Shown here: one piece after another, positions 2,184-11,829 of the stretch
How the letters are laid out: every line of letters starts with the position of its first letter
Position numbering within the stretch: position 1 is the stretch's first letter
Source of the DNA: a virus
Lineage: Duplodnaviria > Heunggongvirae > Uroviricota > Caudoviricetes
Virus record (IMG/VR): IMGVR_UViG_2802429248_000008
Coordinates: 1-26,841 of that record
Strand: one strand, 5' to 3'
DNA: 26,841 bases
The notes under the pieces: model-generated
What the model was told of the DNA's origin: nothing
Database searches by the model: none
The model's input: the letters and a program-made list of their open reading frames with translations, nothing else
Made by a program: the position numbers and the translations under genes

Positions 2184-2492
2184 TTAGCCGGGCTGTGTGC
2201 CAGTCTTGCGGGGTTTTTGAGAAGGCGATGTGCTTTTTGGCCCATCAGGGGAGAGAGACGGACTGATCTGCCCAGCAGCCTCATTTGTTTTTCCCGTCAT
2301 AAGCCAATTCATGTACTTAAAAAAGCGAGGGTGATTAACAATCTTGATAAGCACTTCGCCCCCTATGTTTTCAATCCGCCCCGTTTCATAACGACGCAAA
2401 GTGCCGATAGGCACATCAATCAGGCCGCAAAATTCTTCGCGCGTTAAATCCTCTGATTCACGAATCACTCTAATTTTTTCACCGATAAGCAT
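2184..2492 (-). CDS. Immunity repressor, XRE-type HTH (P2 C-like)
   Basis: 102 aa from ATG 2492 (MLIGEKIRVIRESEDLTREEF...GTLRRYETG). It is similar in size to P2 C and lies directly upstream of int, divergent from the cox-like gene. Confidence 0.85.
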   Translation of the reverse strand: MLIGEKIRVIRESEDLTREEFCGLIDVPIGTLRRYETGRIENIGGEVLIKIVNHPRFFKYMNWLMTGKTNEAAGQISPSLSPDGPKSTSPSQKPRKTGTQPG

Positions 2493-2588
2493 TGACAGTG
2501 TTCCTATAAGTACACTAAGCTTGCGCACAAGGTGTACTTATAAGTACACCAAGTCACAAACAACCACAGATAGCGCAGGTTATCACAC
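2493..2588. promoter_or_regulatory. Divergent lysis/lysogeny switch region with TAAGTACAC operator half-sites
   Basis: Perfect 18-bp palindrome GTGTACTTATAAGTACAC at 2532-2549, plus a third copy TATAAGTACAC at 2505-2515. A TTGACA hexamer lies at 2492-2497. The region sits between the divergent repressor and cox-like genes. Confidence 0.7.
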
Positions 2589-2867
2589 ATGGCAAAAGTC
2601 CTGAACACACACGAACAGGCAGACTTTGAGCGTTTAGCAGCGTTCTATCCCTACCGCGATGAGCATGGGTTACCAGTACTTGAAGAAAGCCTGAAAGATT
2701 ACGCAAAGCGTACCAACCAAGCTGTTAACACAGTGAAAAGACAGGCTGACAGAGGTTCAATTCCCATCAACCAGGATGAAAAGAACTCAAGACGCACAGT
2801 AAATCTCTTCGCTCTTTTCCTGAAAACAATCAGGAGCGCAGAAAAATACGTGCAGATGACAAAATAA
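2589..2867 (+). CDS. cox: Cox-like excisionase / lytic switch regulator
   Basis: 92 aa and first gene of the rightward operon. The segment DYAKRTNQAVNTVKRQADRGSIPIN resembles the P2 Cox HTH (FAKLIGKSTGAVRRMIDKGKLPVI). Confidence 0.7.
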   Translation: MAKVLNTHEQADFERLAAFYPYRDEHGLPVLEESLKDYAKRTNQAVNTVKRQADRGSIPINQDEKNSRRTVNLFALFLKTIRSAEKYVQMTK

Positions 2868-2881
2868 CGAGGTGTCATTTT

Positions 2882-3220
2882 ATGCTGAAGCAACGCCGTA
2901 ATTTTCGTACCGGAACAGAACGCCACGCTAACCGTTTCACTACCAGTGCATCACGCAGCAACATCCGCTACAGCCTGAGTGATACACACGCAACGCCGGA
3001 TGGCTACCCAGTAAAACAAATCGGCGAGCACGCCTGGCTGATTGAGAAAGCTGGAATCGTGATCCACAAATGCCCACGCAATCCGTTTACCGGAAACCGC
3101 ATTTTTGCATTGAGCTGCGGCGACAATCAATTCGGGCAGGATTTCACATTATACGAAGCACTTCGCACGGTTGATCGTCTGCTTCGTGGGCAAAGTTTTA
3201 TTAAACAGGCTGATTTATAA
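2882..3220 (+). CDS. Hypothetical early protein
   Basis: 112-aa ORF with a GAGGTG SD 8 nt upstream, in the operon. Confidence 0.6.
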   Translation: MLKQRRNFRTGTERHANRFTTSASRSNIRYSLSDTHATPDGYPVKQIGEHAWLIEKAGIVIHKCPRNPFTGNRIFALSCGDNQFGQDFTLYEALRTVDRLLRGQSFIKQADL

Positions 3221-3964: not shown

Positions 3965-4375
3965 ATGAACGCAAAAGAAAAAGGCATTGTAACTGCGCTA
4001 AAAAATATATCGAAGACCGCAAACAGAGCCATTCAGGATGCAACAAATGCAGGAATGATTGGGCCTGCCACCACGGCCATGATGATAGCAAGAGTAACCG
4101 CCGAAGCAGCCGAAATTATCGAAAAACAGGATGCTGAACTAACGGTTCTCAGAACACAACCAGTCACCGGACTGGATTTGTCTAACACCGGACGCCTTAT
4201 TTACACAATTGGCTCGGAGCTACAGCAATACACCATTATCGCCGGATTACAGGATAAATACCTGATCACTCCTCACCCCATAAGGGAATCAGAAATTCTG
4301 ACAAATCTCCGCCTGATAGAGCGTTCTCACGTCGCATTCATTGATGACGCACAGCGCACCGTATTTAACGCATAG
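3965..4375 (+). CDS. Hypothetical early protein
   Basis: 136-aa ORF with a GGAGA SD 7 nt upstream. Confidence 0.65.
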   Translation: MNAKEKGIVTALKNISKTANRAIQDATNAGMIGPATTAMMIARVTAEAAEIIEKQDAELTVLRTQPVTGLDLSNTGRLIYTIGSELQQYTIIAGLQDKYLITPHPIRESEILTNLRLIERSHVAFIDDAQRTVFNA

Positions 4376-4398
4376 GGTTACTGGACAAAGGGGGCGCA

Positions 4399-4602
4399 AT
4401 GGCAATTAAGCGATTTACCGTCGTTCGTTTCACTTCCAGAGGACGTGAATACGAAGTTGACGAACGGCTGATTAAAACGCTCGACCGTCACCGTTCGCAA
4501 CCTGACGCGCATCACATTTATCTCACTGACGACACTTACTTCTGCGCCACCAACGTGGTGCAGGTGAACCTTATCCGACAGGTACAGGAGTCACGCAGAT
4601 GA
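4399..4602 (+). CDS. Hypothetical early protein
   Basis: 67-aa ORF with an AAGGGGG SD. Its stop overlaps the next start (ATGA). Confidence 0.6.
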   Translation: MAIKRFTVVRFTSRGREYEVDERLIKTLDRHRSQPDAHHIYLTDDTYFCATNVVQVNLIRQVQESRR

Positions 4603-4844
4603 CCATTCTGGACTACATCGCCGCCAATCCGGGTTGTAGCGGCGGAGAAATCGCCGCAGCACTGAATACCCCAACCACAGCCATTAATGCTGAGTTACGC
4701 CGACTCTGGCGCGACGGCTTAGTCATCAGAGAAGAACGCAAAACAGGCGGTCGGTTCTCTTACCAGGTAAACCCGATGCCGTTCGGGTGTGGCAATCCAC
4801 TTACTCACATGTTTAACCAGCTACTGAAGGAAGCCAGAGCATGA
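4599..4844 (+). CDS. Small winged-helix DNA-binding protein
   Basis: 81 aa. The pattern ILDYIAANPGCSGGEIAAAL...INAELRRLWRDGLVIRE is a MarR/wHTH-like pattern. Starts and stops overlap on both sides. Confidence 0.6.
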   Translation: MTILDYIAANPGCSGGEIAAALNTPTTAINAELRRLWRDGLVIREERKTGGRFSYQVNPMPFGCGNPLTHMFNQLLKEARA

Positions 4845-5140
4845 GCACCATCAACCACCAGGAACTACGCGAACTGGCGACTGACCTGCAACGAATGGCA
4901 ACGCATCAAAAATTACTGGCGTTTCGCGCAATGCTCTCGCCATCTTCCGTGCTGGCACTGCTGGATGAGCTGGAGCACGCCAGAACCATGGCTCCAGCCA
5001 TTCGCCTGACGCTCCATCATGAAATCGCTGATTTCTGCGCACCACTGGGTTCGCCTGGTGAACCAGAAACGCCGGAAGCAATGCAACGAGAGCTACTGCA
5101 ACGCATCGACAAGGTTTTTGATTTTTTCCTTAACCAGTAA
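4841..5140 (+). CDS. Hypothetical protein with an ead/Ea22-like helical motif
   Basis: 99 aa. The motif VLALLDELEHAR resembles the Ea22-family coiled-coil signature. Confidence 0.55.
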   Translation: MSTINHQELRELATDLQRMATHQKLLAFRAMLSPSSVLALLDELEHARTMAPAIRLTLHHEIADFCAPLGSPGEPETPEAMQRELLQRIDKVFDFFLNQ

Positions 5141-5151
5141 AGGACCGCGAT

Positions 5152-5355
5152 ATGAACAAAAAGACCTGGTTTCGCGCATACATGTGGGCGCTGGTATGCG
5201 TCCTCGTTTCTCTCATTCTGTATGCAGGACTACTCCCCCGAATGATTTCATCAGACAGCTCCTTCCTGGTATTGCTGGGCATTTTCATTGCCATGCTGTA
5301 CCCGGCAGGCGTTGTTCGCCTTTTCAGTAAGTACATCAAGGAAATCAAACAATGA
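5152..5355 (+). CDS. Small two-helix membrane protein, partner of the SPFH gene
   Basis: 67 aa with two hydrophobic stretches (WALVCVLVSLILYAGLL and FLVLLGIFIAMLYPAGVV). ATGA overlap with the next gene. Confidence 0.65.
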   Translation: MNKKTWFRAYMWALVCVLVSLILYAGLLPRMISSDSSFLVLLGIFIAMLYPAGVVRLFSKYIKEIKQ

Positions 5356-6182
5356 AGAAATTCAAACTCTTTCAGATTCTCCCGCTTTTTGCCGCCATCC
5401 TGCTGGTTGGCTGCGATCGCGTTGAGCCAGGTAATGTGGGCATCAAAGTCAACAAGCTGGGCGACGACAAAGGCGTTGGCGAAGTGGTTGGCGTTGGCCG
5501 CTACTGGACTGGCTGGAATACAGAGGTTTACATCTTCCCGACCTTCAAACAAATGAAGACCTACGATGAGCCGTTCAGCTTCCAGATGAGTGACGGCACA
5601 ACCATCGGCTATCACATCGGCGTGGCTTACAAGGTTGATCCATCCAAAGTTACCACAGTGTTTCAGACCTACCGCAAAGGCGTGGATGACATTACCGACA
5701 CTGACCTGCGCCAGAAGATCGCCGATGCACTCAACCGACTGGCCAGCAAAATGACCACCGATAAGTTTATCGACGGCGGTAAGTCTGAACTGCTGGATTC
5801 AGCACTTAAAGATATTCAGGAAGAGATGACCCCCATCGGCATTCAGGTCATGAGCCTCTCTTATGTCGGCAAACCGGAATATCCGCCAACCGTTATCGAC
5901 AGCATTAACGCCAAAGTCACGGCAAACCAGAAAACCCTGCAACGCGAACAGGAAGTCAAGCAACGCGAAGCTGAAGCCAACATGCTGCGCGCAGAAGCTG
6001 CCGGACAGGCCGATGCCATTCGCACAAAAGCCCAGGCTGAAGCCGACGCCATTCGTTTACGCGGCGAAGCTCTGCGCCAGAATCCCGGCGTCATGGAGCT
6101 GGAAGCGATTAACAAATGGAACGGCACGCTGCCGCAATACATGACCAGTAACACCGCTGTTCCGTTCGTTCCCGTGAAGTAA
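5352..6182 (+). CDS. SPFH / band-7 (prohibitin-like) lipoprotein
   Basis: 276 aa. Signal peptide with lipobox LLVGC. SPFH-type core (GNVGIKVNKLG...YIFPTF...) followed by an Ala/Glu/Arg-rich coiled coil (QREAEANMLRAEAAGQADAIRTKAQAEADAIRLRGEAL). Confidence 0.8.
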   Translation: MKKFKLFQILPLFAAILLVGCDRVEPGNVGIKVNKLGDDKGVGEVVGVGRYWTGWNTEVYIFPTFKQMKTYDEPFSFQMSDGTTIGYHIGVAYKVDPSKVTTVFQTYRKGVDDITDTDLRQKIADALNRLASKMTTDKFIDGGKSELLDSALKDIQEEMTPIGIQVMSLSYVGKPEYPPTVIDSINAKVTANQKTLQREQEVKQREAEANMLRAEAAGQADAIRTKAQAEADAIRLRGEALRQNPGVMELEAINKWNGTLPQYMTSNTAVPFVPVK

Positions 6183-6237
6183 TGACACCCGGCCAGTGAA
6201 ACCGCTGGCCAATAAACAAAAAGCCAGAGGACAGAAC

Positions 6238-6384
6238 ATGCACAAAGCCTTTGAACGATGGATGCGTCAGCGTTACGGCAACCGCTACGACCTGACAAGA
6301 GATGCCGATGGCTACTACTGCCGCGAAATTGTGAAACGAATGTTTGAAGTGTGGTGCCACCACCGCGGTTTATACGCCGTGTAA
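6238..6384 (+). CDS. Hypothetical small protein (48 aa)
   Basis: ATG 6238 has an AGAGGA SD 7 nt upstream. The tracked GTG start at 6196 lacks an SD. Confidence 0.45.
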   Translation: MHKAFERWMRQRYGNRYDLTRDADGYYCREIVKRMFEVWCHHRGLYAV

Positions 6385-6411
6385 AGCACCACCGCTAACG
6401 AGGTAAAAAAT

Positions 6412-6972
6412 ATGCATAACTTCAAACTCAAACCAATGGGTACACCTGGTGTGGCTCCGGCACATGTAAAACCATGGACACAACAGGAAGATGAAATGCT
6501 TATCTCGCTTTATCCGGAGTGCAACACGCGCCAGATAACCGAACAAATTCAACGAACCCATGACGCAGTTATGCACCGACTTAGTTTTTTACGTGATCGT
6601 GGATTGATTGGTCGCAAGAAAAAGACTCTGAGTGCAAAGGAGATCGCCTTTCTCATTGAAAACCGCCACACCAGAACGGCGCAGGAACTGGCCGCCGAGG
6701 TGGGATGCACCCATCGCACCGTACAAGCGCACCTGAATAAACGTGGTTATAGCCTGCGAAAATGCGGAGAACTCCACCACCTGACCAGATACAGCGATCA
6801 CCTGGTGGAACTGGTGACTGAACTACGTGATGAGCAGCACATGACGTTCGCCATGATAGCAAAACACATTAATCACACACTGCAAATAAAAGTCACCACT
6901 CGTACAGCACGTTTTCTTTACGGTCGCCGCACCGCCGCCGACGCCGTGCTGTACGAGCTATTACCAAACTGA
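6412..6972 (+). CDS. DNA-binding protein with an N-terminal SANT/Myb-like motif and repeated HTH-like units
   Basis: 186 aa. WTQQEDEMLISLY is Myb-like. Three HTH-like segments follow: TRQITEQIQRTHDAVMHRL, TAQELAAEVGCTHRTVQAHL and TFAMIAKHINHTL. Confidence 0.6.
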   Translation: MHNFKLKPMGTPGVAPAHVKPWTQQEDEMLISLYPECNTRQITEQIQRTHDAVMHRLSFLRDRGLIGRKKKTLSAKEIAFLIENRHTRTAQELAAEVGCTHRTVQAHLNKRGYSLRKCGELHHLTRYSDHLVELVTELRDEQHMTFAMIAKHINHTLQIKVTTRTARFLYGRRTAADAVLYELLPN

Positions 6973-7092
6973 GTAATCATCATGCACACACAAAAAAACC
7001 GCTTGCCATGCCGCAATCAGTCAGGTTACATTTCCGCTGCACCTCATAAAACGGGTGCCGGGATTCTCAACCTGCTGACAAACGAAGCGCAC

Positions 7093-7113
7093 AACCGCGC
7101 CAGCGGTTTTTTT
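7093..7113 (+). terminator. Rho-independent terminator inside the non-coding gap
   Basis: AACCGC (7093-7098), loop GCCA, GCGGTT (7103-7108), with a T run extending to 7113. Confidence 0.6.
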
Positions 7114-7154
7114 GTGCGTACTGTATTGCCACGTCTTTTTCGCATCAGAATTAT

Positions 7155-7235
7155 GGTGGGGCGTACGGGGCCGACTTCGGTCGGGCCGGTTTCTTCGTTT
7201 GCCGGTGTTGAGAACCCCGTACGTCTCGCCACCCC
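7155..7235 (+). ncRNA. Candidate structured antisense RNA with c4-like (P1/P7 immI-type) architecture
   Basis: Perfect 9-bp stem 7162-7170/7215-7223 and outer 5-bp stem 7155-7159/7229-7233. Inner hairpin CCGAC-UUCG-GUCGG (7171-7184). Second hairpin 7185-7190/7201-7206 with a 10-nt loop. The loop and the single-stranded 7207-7214 are complementary to duplicated targets at 7063-7087 and 7240-7284. No credible ORF is present. Confidence 0.55.
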
Positions 7236-7295
7236 GAGATTCTCAACTCTGGTTGGTGAGTATCCAAAAACTCACAAACGAAGAGGCCAAACACC

Positions 7296-7526
7296 ATGGC
7301 AAACCGCAAACAGCACCGCGCTATCGCGGAGCGTCGTCACATCCAGACTGAAATCAACCGCAGACTTTTCCGCGCATCACGCGTCGCGCAGATCATGCAC
7401 ATCAATATGCTGCATGAGCGCAGCCACGCGCTATCGAACATCTATTCAGCCTCTATTTTCAGCTATCTGGCGGATGATCTGCGCGAGCTTCAGCGGCTCA
7501 TCCTGCAGCAAAACAAACTCCATTAA
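7296..7526 (+). CDS. Small basic protein; likely target of the antisense RNA (occupies the position of Icd in the P1 module)
   Basis: 76-aa ORF. Its GAAGAGG SD (7280-7286) is overlapped by the 10-nt target CAAACGAAGA (7275-7284). Confidence 0.6.
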   Translation: MANRKQHRAIAERRHIQTEINRRLFRASRVAQIMHINMLHERSHALSNIYSASIFSYLADDLRELQRLILQQNKLH

Positions 7527-10869: not shown

Positions 10870-11829
10870 ATGAAAATTTGTATCGACGACGGCTCCACCA
10901 ACATCAAGCTGGCATGGACTGAGAACAGCGAACGCCGCAACGCCATCAGCCCGAACAGCTTCAAGTCGGAATGGTCTGCGCCGTTCGGTGGCTCGCAGCC
11001 TGCGAACTACATGCTTGATGGCGTGCGCTATGGTTTTGATCCGGTCAGCGATCGCTTTGTCCAGACGACCGACACGCAATACCAGTACAGCGATGTGAAT
11101 GTAATCGCCATTCACCACGCGCTGGTCAAATCAGGCATCACACCACAGGAGGTGGATGTGGTTGTCACCCTGCCACTGAGCGAGTATTTCGACACAAACG
11201 CACAGCCGGACATGGCCAACATCAACCGCAAAAAAGCGAACGTTATGCGCCCGGTGGAGTACCAGAACGGTGAGGCATTCACTATCCGTAACGTGCGGGT
11301 TATGCCTGAATCCATTCCGGCTGGCTTTAAAGCACTGGCTGACATGAGTCCGTTTGAATCCCTGCTGATTGTGGATTTAGGCGGAACCACGCTGGATGTG
11401 GCAAAGGTTCAGGGACAACTGGCAGGTATCAGCCAGGTGTTTTGCGATCCACACGTAGGCGTTTCCCTGATGGCCGATGCCGTACTGTCGGTGATGGCCA
11501 CTAACGGTATGCGTACCAGTCACCACATCGCCAATACCATTATCGAACATCGCCATGATGAAGCCTGGCTGCGCCAGCACATCCACAATGACGCGCATTA
11601 CAACAGCCTGATGGCGGTTATTCGTGAAAAGGAAGAAACACTGAAACAACGCGTGATCCGCGCGCTGGCGGGTTTTTCGGGTTACGGGCGGGTGATGGTT
11701 GTCGGTGGAGGGGCGGAGATTGTGGCACCCGCTATCCGCGAAGCCTGCGGAGTTAATGCGACTTTCATCGCGGACGGGGTGCCACAGTTTGCTCTGGTTA
11801 ATGGGCTGTACGCAATGGACAAGGAGTAA
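10870..11829 (+). CDS. parM: ParM/StbA actin-like plasmid segregation ATPase
   Basis: 319 aa, aligning along its whole length with my recollection of R1 ParM. Shared segments include IDDGSTNIKL, YSDVNV-A-HHAL, VMPESIPAG, DLGGTTLD, GGGAE and LVNG-Y. Confidence 0.9.
   Translation: MKICIDDGSTNIKLAWTENSERRNAISPNSFKSEWSAPFGGSQPANYMLDGVRYGFDPVSDRFVQTTDTQYQYSDVNVIAIHHALVKSGITPQEVDVVVTLPLSEYFDTNAQPDMANINRKKANVMRPVEYQNGEAFTIRNVRVMPESIPAGFKALADMSPFESLLIVDLGGTTLDVAKVQGQLAGISQVFCDPHVGVSLMADAVLSVMATNGMRTSHHIANTIIEHRHDEAWLRQHIHNDAHYNSLMAVIREKEETLKQRVIRALAGFSGYGRVMVVGGGAEIVAPAIREACGVNATFIADGVPQFALVNGLYAMDKE

Follow-up and report, generated by a model that had tools for sequence, protein, structure and literature searches.

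Structures of the SPFH cages (HflK/C, prohibitin, flotillin, stomatin, erlin, QmcA-YbbJ) became available only recently, and the effect of these cages on the membrane they enclose is debated. Two kinds of bacterial system come closest to the locus described here. In Escherichia coli, HflK and HflC form a heteropair, anchored by N-terminal transmembrane (TM) helices, that builds a periplasm-facing cage around FtsH (PDB 7vhp, 7vhq, 7wi3, 9cz2). In the NfeD-SPFH operons (QmcA-YbbJ, PDB 8z5g; YqiJ-YqiK; Bacillus subtilis YuaF-FloT), a small membrane protein is encoded beside an SPFH protein and co-translated with it. The solved QmcA-YbbJ cage has its partners at 1:1, in 26 heterodimers (cited in PMC13086221). 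Here, we analyze two genes in the IMG/VR virus record IMGVR_UViG_2802429248_000008, of which the whole stretch from position 1 to 26,841 (26,841 nucleotides [nt]; the window) consists of P2-like prophage DNA. These genes encode a small membrane protein and an SPFH lipoprotein. We rate their conserved partnership as our main new result: the partner is not NfeD, the SPFH scaffold is predicted to be lipid-anchored and periplasmic, and the pair has been spread mainly by phages.

The original prediction, made from the window alone, held that the genes for a 67-amino-acid (aa) and a 276-aa protein are translationally coupled and that P2 and 186 carry no such genes in their early regions. Both open reading frames (ORFs) are present (Table 1), and the two genes are confirmed as a real, translationally coupled pair: the small-gene stop overlaps the SPFH-gene start in an ATGA, and an AAGGA lies 9 nt before the SPFH-gene start codon. 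In P2 and 186, the pair is not annotated, and tblastn with the SPFH protein returned nothing at E ≤ 10, which bears out the second claim. The window region shares 97.6% identity with Escherichia phage P88 (Peduoviridae, Xuanwuvirus), whose gp11 (“membrane protein”) and gp12 (“lipoprotein”) are 98.5% and 100% identical to the small and SPFH proteins, respectively. The P88 pair is the same element in the same early-operon position, with a Cox-like gene on one side and a replication endonuclease gene on the other, and we noted no differences between the two as systems. In phage N4, gp20 is a 61.5% identical SPFH lipoprotein, and its gene is overlapped by 8 nt by that of gp19, a homologous 68-aa partner. 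However, N4 is virulent, and its lipobox is followed by C-Y-D rather than C-D-R.

Word-indexed searches with the small protein retrieve close relatives only, and distant partners were recognized by genomic position and a custom hidden Markov model (HMM). Among close loci, a homologous gene of 62-78 aa overlaps or abuts the SPFH start in 83 of 84, the lone exception being truncated by a contig end. These loci include phiP27, the P1-like RCS47, and the SSU5-like phage-plasmid Cyrano, and across other phage backbones the two genes still overlap or abut (−20 to +3 nt). The partner is also found in prophages of Vibrio, Alcaligenes, and Epibacterium, in Mu-like phages, and in a Dyella chromosome, as well as in Mydovirus KNP2 (E = 1e-13, with one intervening gene), Pseudomonas phage 5400 (5e-10), Bruynoghevirus PaP4 (1e-4), and Ounavirinae SunLIRen (4.5e-4). 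We then assembled a broad set of 80 loci from species-level genomes, found by a search from a 7-sequence alignment, of which 77 had upstream DNA. The partner HMM was positive in 64 of these 77 loci (60 adjacent, 2 displaced, and 2 fused), and in four further loci the motif was visible by eye. At E ≤ 0.01, the HMM matched none of the other 8,726 of the 8,790 stop-to-stop ORF segments. Because all 64 matches lie upstream of, or fused to, SPFH genes and none lies elsewhere, the pairing is far beyond chance, and the co-occurrence suggested as a check on the original prediction extends across unrelated phages, prophages, and bacteria.

Natural gene fusions point the same way. Partner and SPFH protein are fused in frame in 16 of the 150 best family representatives (~10%), 15 of them with the partner N-terminal and one (P0148) with it C-terminal; the HMM that detected them was built from four phage partners only, and the fusions score E = 7e-9 to 4e-3. 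In a close relative from E. coli (P0001), the stop/start junction has been lost, giving a 347-aa in-frame partner-SPFH fusion. The order of parts (hairpin, cytoplasmic linker, signal peptide with its lipobox kept, SPFH) fits the topologies predicted for both proteins, and the PHROG 200 profile has about 80 additional N-terminal positions, as would be expected if fused members contributed to it. That the two proteins work together is strongly supported, at the level of sequence comparison, by these fusions and by the co-occurrence of the genes in unrelated phages and bacteria.

Several loci depart from the usual arrangement or its annotation. The partner gene is unannotated in the RefSeq records of phiP27 (locus L002, 2759-2947) and RCS47 (locus L003, 2730-2966). 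One close relative on an IMG/VR contig (L010) has a frameshifted small ORF. On two chromosomes, of Shigella flexneri (L104) and E. coli (L105), a ~768-bp insertion at about 2237-3003 parts the partner and SPFH genes and is a natural disruption of their coupling; it contains a degenerate opposite-strand ORF that we take to be IS1 InsA-like.

The pair travels widely. An exhaustive representative search returned 221 clusters at E ≤ 1e-30, or 953 when the threshold is relaxed to E ≤ 1e-10, and relatives are encoded in 385 of 50,697 phage records, with hosts spanning Pseudomonas, Klebsiella, Erwinia, Escherichia, Burkholderia, Caulobacter, Salmonella, and Prevotella. Carriers of the pair include not only P2-like, lambdoid/Stx, P1-like, SSU5-like, and Mu-like phages but also virulent ones (N4, Mydovirus, Ounavirinae, Bruynoghevirus). 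A nucleotide match is present in 715 of 5,426 complete E. coli genomes (~13%), with about half of the places on plasmids, and P1-like and SSU5-like phage-plasmids are among the phage matches listed. A single syntenic chromosomal site, flanked by a BlaI/BlaR-like pair on one side and a ribonucleotide-reductase small subunit on the other, holds the two genes in 26 Dyella/Rhodanobacteraceae genomes. This combination of syntenic chromosomal and virulent-phage occurrence indicates that the module works without other phage proteins and is useful to virulent phages and cells alike, which argues against a role limited to lysogeny control or lysogenic conversion. Nor is the pair accompanied by a conserved third gene. 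The upstream neighbor varies: it is gp18 (4413-4727, “similar to P22 gp17”) in N4 and ead/Ea22-like in the window (4841-5140) and in P88. The Dyella-group copies (loci L088 and L117-L170) are divergent from the BlaI-like repressor/BlaR-like membrane protein pair, with ~400 bp between them, an arrangement that hints at a possible envelope-stress regulation of that locus.

In the window, the pair ends a tight co-directional array (3965-6182) whose members overlap or lie apart by no more than ~25 nt (11 nt between the ead/Ea22-like ORF and the small gene), and a Cox-like gene at 2589-2867 precedes this array. We found no sigma-70-like promoter on the + strand from 4013 to 7003, although such a scan is weak evidence either way. 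Under the same weak scan, no promoter of its own was found near the pair in RCS47, and the sole + strand consensus-level site in phiP27 falls within the small ORF. Given the tight array downstream of the Cox-like gene and the lack of an own promoter, expression from the early lytic promoter is the natural inference from the sequence. The N4 pair is located in the early-to-middle gene block, after the RNA polymerase II genes.

The original prediction credited the 276-aa protein with a lipobox, an SPFH-type core, and a long A/E/R-rich coiled coil, and all three were recovered. Its N-terminus, MKKFKLFQILPLFAAILLVGC, has a basic n-region (MKKFK), a hydrophobic core, and the lipobox L-V-G-C21. The profile search matched Pfam Band_7 (PF01145) over residues 23-209 at E = 5.7e-31, with 108.4 bits vs. 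a cut-off of 23.6, and PHROG 200 (“lipoprotein”) matched at E = 1.8e-112. Band_7 is the sole Pfam domain, with no protease or transposase domain found; homologs labeled “serine protease” or “transposase fusion protein” in GenBank therefore carry unsupported names. An AlphaFold model built from a 40-sequence alignment (mean predicted local distance difference test [pLDDT] 79.5) places a signal-peptide helix at 4-18, a beta-rich SPFH1 at about 21-95, an alpha/beta SPFH2 at about 97-176, a single 65-residue helix at 179-243 where the coiled coil had been predicted, a short helix at 245-255, and a disordered tail, with pLDDT <50 at residues 263-276.

A Foldseek search of the PDB aligned this model over 250-300 columns, at probability 1.0, with human prohibitin, E. 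coli HflK and HflC, erlin, stomatin, flotillin, and QmcA. The targets matched over the full length of the model are all solved cage-forming SPFH proteins, and the lipoprotein is directly predicted to have the complete protomer architecture of this class. Prohibitin and erlin likewise face a non-cytosolic compartment. The best full-length fold matches are the prohibitin, erlin, and stomatin cages (PDB 8rrh, 9o9z, 9vvj, 9oh9), from which the phage protein differs in its low identity (14-19%), its anchoring, and its small co-encoded partner. Within the long helix, the small residues A207, A209, A216, G218, A220, A227, and A229 are invariant, and the invariant Ala/Gly recur with a period of 11 residues (autocorrelation 0.58 at lag 11, a value that none of 5,000 shuffles attained, vs. 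0.14 at lag 7). The C-terminus carries the motif K-W-[ND]-G-x-L-P, of which W256, G258, and P261 are invariant. Together with the modeled fold, these features suggest that the lipoprotein forms a ring or cage.

HflK/HflC has several features in common with this protein: SPFH1 and SPFH2, a long helix, a C-terminal tail, and an SPFH domain on the periplasmic side of the inner membrane (in the phage protein, as predicted). HflK is its best sequence match among solved structures (E = 1.2e-4) and, in a phmmer alignment, also has A/G at the Ala/Gly positions of the wall helix. Still, the HflK and HflC equivalog models in NCBIfam (TIGR01933 and TIGR01932) give only 23.5 and 25.7 bits vs. cut-offs of 159.4 and 134.4. 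The phage protein relies on a lipobox and lipid where HflK/C have an N-terminal TM helix, a single SPFH gene is present in the window and in every locus examined where HflK/C are a heteropair, and only the phage system has a dedicated two-helix partner and phage carriage. We therefore reject orthology with HflK/HflC.

A functional mimic of HflK/C is a separate matter. Such a mimic would capture or release FtsH and thereby tune the lysis-lysogeny decision or shield labile phage proteins. The sequence match to HflK, the fold matches to HflK and HflC, the shared periplasmic orientation, and the placement of the pair in the early-left region of lambdoid prophages, between the repressor and int, would all suit it, as would the control of lambda CII by HflKC-FtsH (PMC1838920; also discussed in PMC8540360). 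Yet strictly virulent carriers such as N4, Mydovirus, and Ounavirinae have no lysogeny decision to tune, an argument from lytic phages also made in PMC8540360; the pair is chromosomal in Dyella; and the low NCBIfam scores, the lone SPFH gene, and the missing HflK-type TM segment count against mimicry as well as orthology. We regard this explanation as improbable.

The small protein was predicted to be a two-helix membrane protein, and this was upheld. Its two hydrophobic segments, joined by a 9-residue turn, are kept across 16 homologs, in which P29 and S33 of the turn motif P-x-[LM]-[IV]-S are invariant and G43 is near-invariant. Over these homologs, lysine plus arginine average 1.7 in the N-tail and 3.6 in the C-tail, as against 0.5 in the loop. 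From this positive-inside charge pattern, both ends are predicted to be cytoplasmic, and the partner is predicted to be an inner-membrane hairpin with only the 9-residue turn in the periplasm. Homologs range from 62 to 84 aa. The protein matches PHROG 1130 (“membrane protein”) at E = 1.3e-22 and no Pfam or NCBIfam family.

Its resemblance to NfeD proteins is one of arrangement. The original prediction had likened the pair to NfeD-SPFH operons while seeing no obvious NfeD OB domain in the small partner. The likeness holds for adjacency and co-translation, given the ATGA junction and the 60 of 77 broad loci with adjacent genes, but it does not extend to homology. PF01957 (NfeD) was not detected at E ≤ 1 in the window protein or in its N4, RCS47, and Alcaligenes homologs, whereas the YbbJ control scored 3.5e-12, and hhalign of a 16-sequence partner profile against YbbJ gave a probability of 3.9%. 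A partner of NfeD descent is thus rejected. The SPFH domain also differs in placement, being cytoplasmic in the NfeD-partnered QmcA and, by prediction, periplasmic in the phage protein. On these sequence comparisons, the small protein is a separate family (PHROG 1130) that serves as the conserved SPFH partner, and the lipoprotein is a member of the SPFH superfamily that is neither HflK nor HflC nor part of an NfeD-SPFH system.

Small two-helix proteins with both ends cytoplasmic and a basic C-tail also include the class II holins, and N4 is known for delayed lysis. The partner could accordingly be imagined as a holin- or antiholin-like membrane-active protein that the SPFH lipoprotein restrains, tuning the timing of lysis. 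It resembles such holins in size and charge pattern, and N4 gp19 shows a weak, non-significant similarity to a Pfam holin family (E = 0.038). However, the unrelated YbbJ control gives E = 0.052, so this similarity mirrors hydrophobic composition only. The pair is also distant from lysis cassettes, with the P2-type holin and endolysin in the late operon, and it is conserved on Dyella chromosomes outside any phage context. A lysis role is very unlikely, the least probable of the explanations weighed here.

The SPFH lipoprotein is directly predicted to be exported and lipid-modified at Cys21. With a lipoprotein signal peptide and lipidation at this residue, its SPFH domain would lie in the periplasm, as in HflK/C. 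The lipobox is present in 108 of 120 close relatives and 115 of 119 relatives from the profile search. Among the close, mostly enterobacterial relatives, position +2 is Asp in 103 of 108 and the sequence is C-D-R in 100 of 108; the window protein has Asp22 at +2 and Arg at +3. Outside Enterobacterales, +2 is mostly Ser or Thr. Asp at +2 is an inner-membrane retention signal in Enterobacteriaceae and not in many other Gram-negatives (PMC9595528; PMC6469965), and its strong form has Asp, Glu, or Gln next, which a basic neighbor does not provide (PMC6469965). Because Asp+2 is fixed in the lineage where it signals retention, retention in the inner membrane is favored. The partner, an inner-membrane hairpin with almost no periplasmic mass that is sometimes fused to the lipoprotein, also points to this membrane, and inner-membrane localization is likely on these sequence features.

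The competing placement is in the outer membrane or its vesicles, where the lipoprotein would act as a lysogenic-conversion or virulence factor in the manner of Pasteurella multocida PM0222. Toll-like receptors 1/2 (TLR1/2) sense triacylated lipoproteins. PM0222, a prophage-encoded HflK/C-like protein of 25-35 kDa, is present in outer-membrane vesicles and signals via TLR1/2, and its deletion attenuates virulence (PMC9872710). This precedent is compared by description only. The Ser/Thr at +2 in most members outside Enterobacterales and the Arg at +3 in the window, which weakens the retention signal, would fit such a factor. By contrast, the fixed enterobacterial Asp+2 and a fused or co-encoded inner-membrane hairpin exposing nine residues to the periplasm do not, and no promoter of the pair's own was found in the window. 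Lysogenic conversion would also bring no benefit to virulent phages. Taken together, we consider this role quite improbable.

A further explanation is superinfection exclusion, or an envelope barrier against other phages, in which the hairpin and lipoprotein would stop secondary phages from penetrating the cell wall or delivering their DNA. Phage exclusion functions usually take the form of early-made small membrane proteins and lipoproteins (T4 Imm/Sp, T5 Llp, phi80 Cor, TP-J34 Ltp), and this pair, as an early-made example of both, matches that form. It also sits at accessory, variable positions in many phages: between upl and tRNA-Met/ban in RCS47, where P1 normally carries tciABC, and near int/xis in lambdoid phages. 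In addition, PHROG 1130 is categorized as “moron, auxiliary metabolic gene and host takeover,” and virulent carriers would gain from shutting out competitors. Against this, the SPFH protein matched no defense model in PADLOC-DB 2.0, and the small protein reached only 14 bits against PDC-M18B over a 21-residue hydrophobic stretch (E = 0.0078); membership in a known defense system is therefore rejected. Lying in a repressed early operon with no promoter of its own, the pair would leave a lysogen unprotected. Its vertical, syntenic inheritance between housekeeping genes in the 26 Dyella-group genomes is unlike that of patchy defense genes, and a complete cage-type SPFH architecture is unlike any known exclusion protein. 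Exclusion is unlikely on this evidence, though less so than the FtsH-directed mimic or the outer-membrane factor.

We instead prefer the reading of the pair as a self-contained two-component SPFH scaffold, in which a lipid-anchored periplasmic ring or cage and its hairpin partner act early in the lytic cycle on the envelope or on proteostasis, and we give it a probability of roughly 0.55. The SPFH lipoprotein would assemble on the inner membrane into a ring or cage that faces the periplasm, and the hairpin, an integral membrane protein, would be its partner in roughly equimolar amounts. The hairpin may form a transmembrane palisade beneath the lipid-anchored ring or dome, or it may be an enclosed client. 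Expressed from the early operon, the pair would appear at an early stage of the lytic cycle, whereas the repressed lysogen would not make it, and it would require no other phage protein. The ring or cage would then cordon off or reshape part of the host inner membrane, and insulating this patch might affect the quality control of membrane proteins or the stability of the envelope, in the way that HflK/C acts for FtsH. By this analogy, we favor remodeling or insulation of an inner-membrane patch during infection as the most likely role.

Several points weigh against the scaffold. Oligomerization, lipidation, localization, and the contact between the partners are all deductions. The Lol-avoidance signal does not extend to the whole family, with Ser/Thr dominating +2 outside Enterobacterales, and the Arg that follows Asp in the window does not give the strong form of the signal, so outer-membrane sorting is the less likely alternative. 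Similarity to HflK/C falls so far under the cut-offs that an FtsH-type client cannot be assumed. The partner is missing altogether, though only from the most distant lineages (Ignavibacteria/Kapaibacterium, Bacteroidia, Cytophagales, a myxobacterium, and phiCbK-like phages). Finally, a Sutterella homolog has no lipobox Cys and is apparently TM-anchored, yet it retains the partner. This same homolog argues against a purely anchoring role for the hairpin and weakens the idea that the partner merely substitutes for a missing TM anchor.

More tentatively, the pair may represent a hitherto unrecognized class of SPFH system, minimal, mobile, and made of two proteins, with which phages of many unrelated families, P2-like prophages and N4 among them, cage the outer face of the host inner membrane and so sequester or insulate membrane machinery, the fused forms being cut by signal peptidase II. 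We consider this broader version possible but doubtful.

The genes themselves are already catalogued (P88 gp11/gp12, N4 gp19/gp20, PHROGs 1130 and 200). Published genome descriptions call the role of family genes unclear, we found no functional study of the pair apart from that of the possibly related PM0222, and a 2026 survey of Pseudomonas SPFH proteins does not mention phages or lipoproteins. Neither the conserved hairpin partner nor the fusions were described in the literature covered by full-text searches, which does not imply that no description exists elsewhere. Our analysis corrects misleading family labels (“serine protease,” “transposase”) and adds an unannotated gene to phiP27 and RCS47. 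If it works as proposed, the cassette would be the smallest and most portable SPFH version known, with no host-specific co-factors apparent. Its presence in N4, P1-like plasmids, and ~13% of complete E. coli genomes offers a tractable handle on how SPFH proteins choose partners and what viruses gain from them. The module is widespread, well defined, and experimentally tractable; on present evidence, it is not a new kind of biology.

Table 1. Features of the gene pair, in window coordinates
Feature	Position	Strand	Description
Small partner gene	5152..5355	+	ORF, 67 aa, two predicted TM helices, PHROG 1130
SPFH lipoprotein gene	5352..6182	+	ORF, 276 aa
Shine-Dalgarno-like AAGGA of the small gene	5140..5144	+	7 nt ahead of ATG, read from sequence
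Translational coupling region	5338..5355	+	AAGGA (5338-5342) within the small gene; ATGA (5352-5355)
Lipoprotein signal peptide	5352..5414	+	residues 1-21, lipobox L-V-G-C21, followed by Asp22-Arg23
SPFH/Band 7 domain	5418..5978	+	residues 23-209; Pfam PF01145, AlphaFold, Foldseek
Long A/E/R/Q-rich helix	5886..6080	+	residues 179-243, AlphaFold; proposed ring/cage wall
C-terminal tail	6114..6179	+	residues 255-276, K-W-[ND]-G-x-L-P; candidate cap/oligomerization element

Beyond the pair, the match to phage P88 stops just past the SPFH gene, from about 6210. Two non-P88 ORFs follow, at 6196-6384 (phrog_3871, function not known) and 6412-6972 (phrog_323, “transcriptional regulator, D5-like”). 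With the P88 match lost and these other ORFs in its place, the cassette borders a variable spot.

Farther downstream, Rfam identified two RNAs within 7039-7236 on the + strand: the Hfq-binding small RNA isrK at 7039-7113 (62 bits) and a C4 antisense RNA at 7149-7236 (79 bits). A promoter-like site (7003-7032) and a terminator-like hairpin (7093-7108) lie near them, and they directly precede an ORF at 7296-7526 whose P88 homolog is labeled “derepression protein.” The interval 7039-7526 is a P1 immI-like antisense/antirepressor module within a P2-like early region. The P88 homolog of the ORF at 10870-11829, which is colinear with P88 8856-9815, is labeled plasmid segregation protein ParM, and a “partition protein” comes next. 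As judged from this P88 annotation, the ParM and partition genes would be unusual cargo for a P2-like integrating phage.

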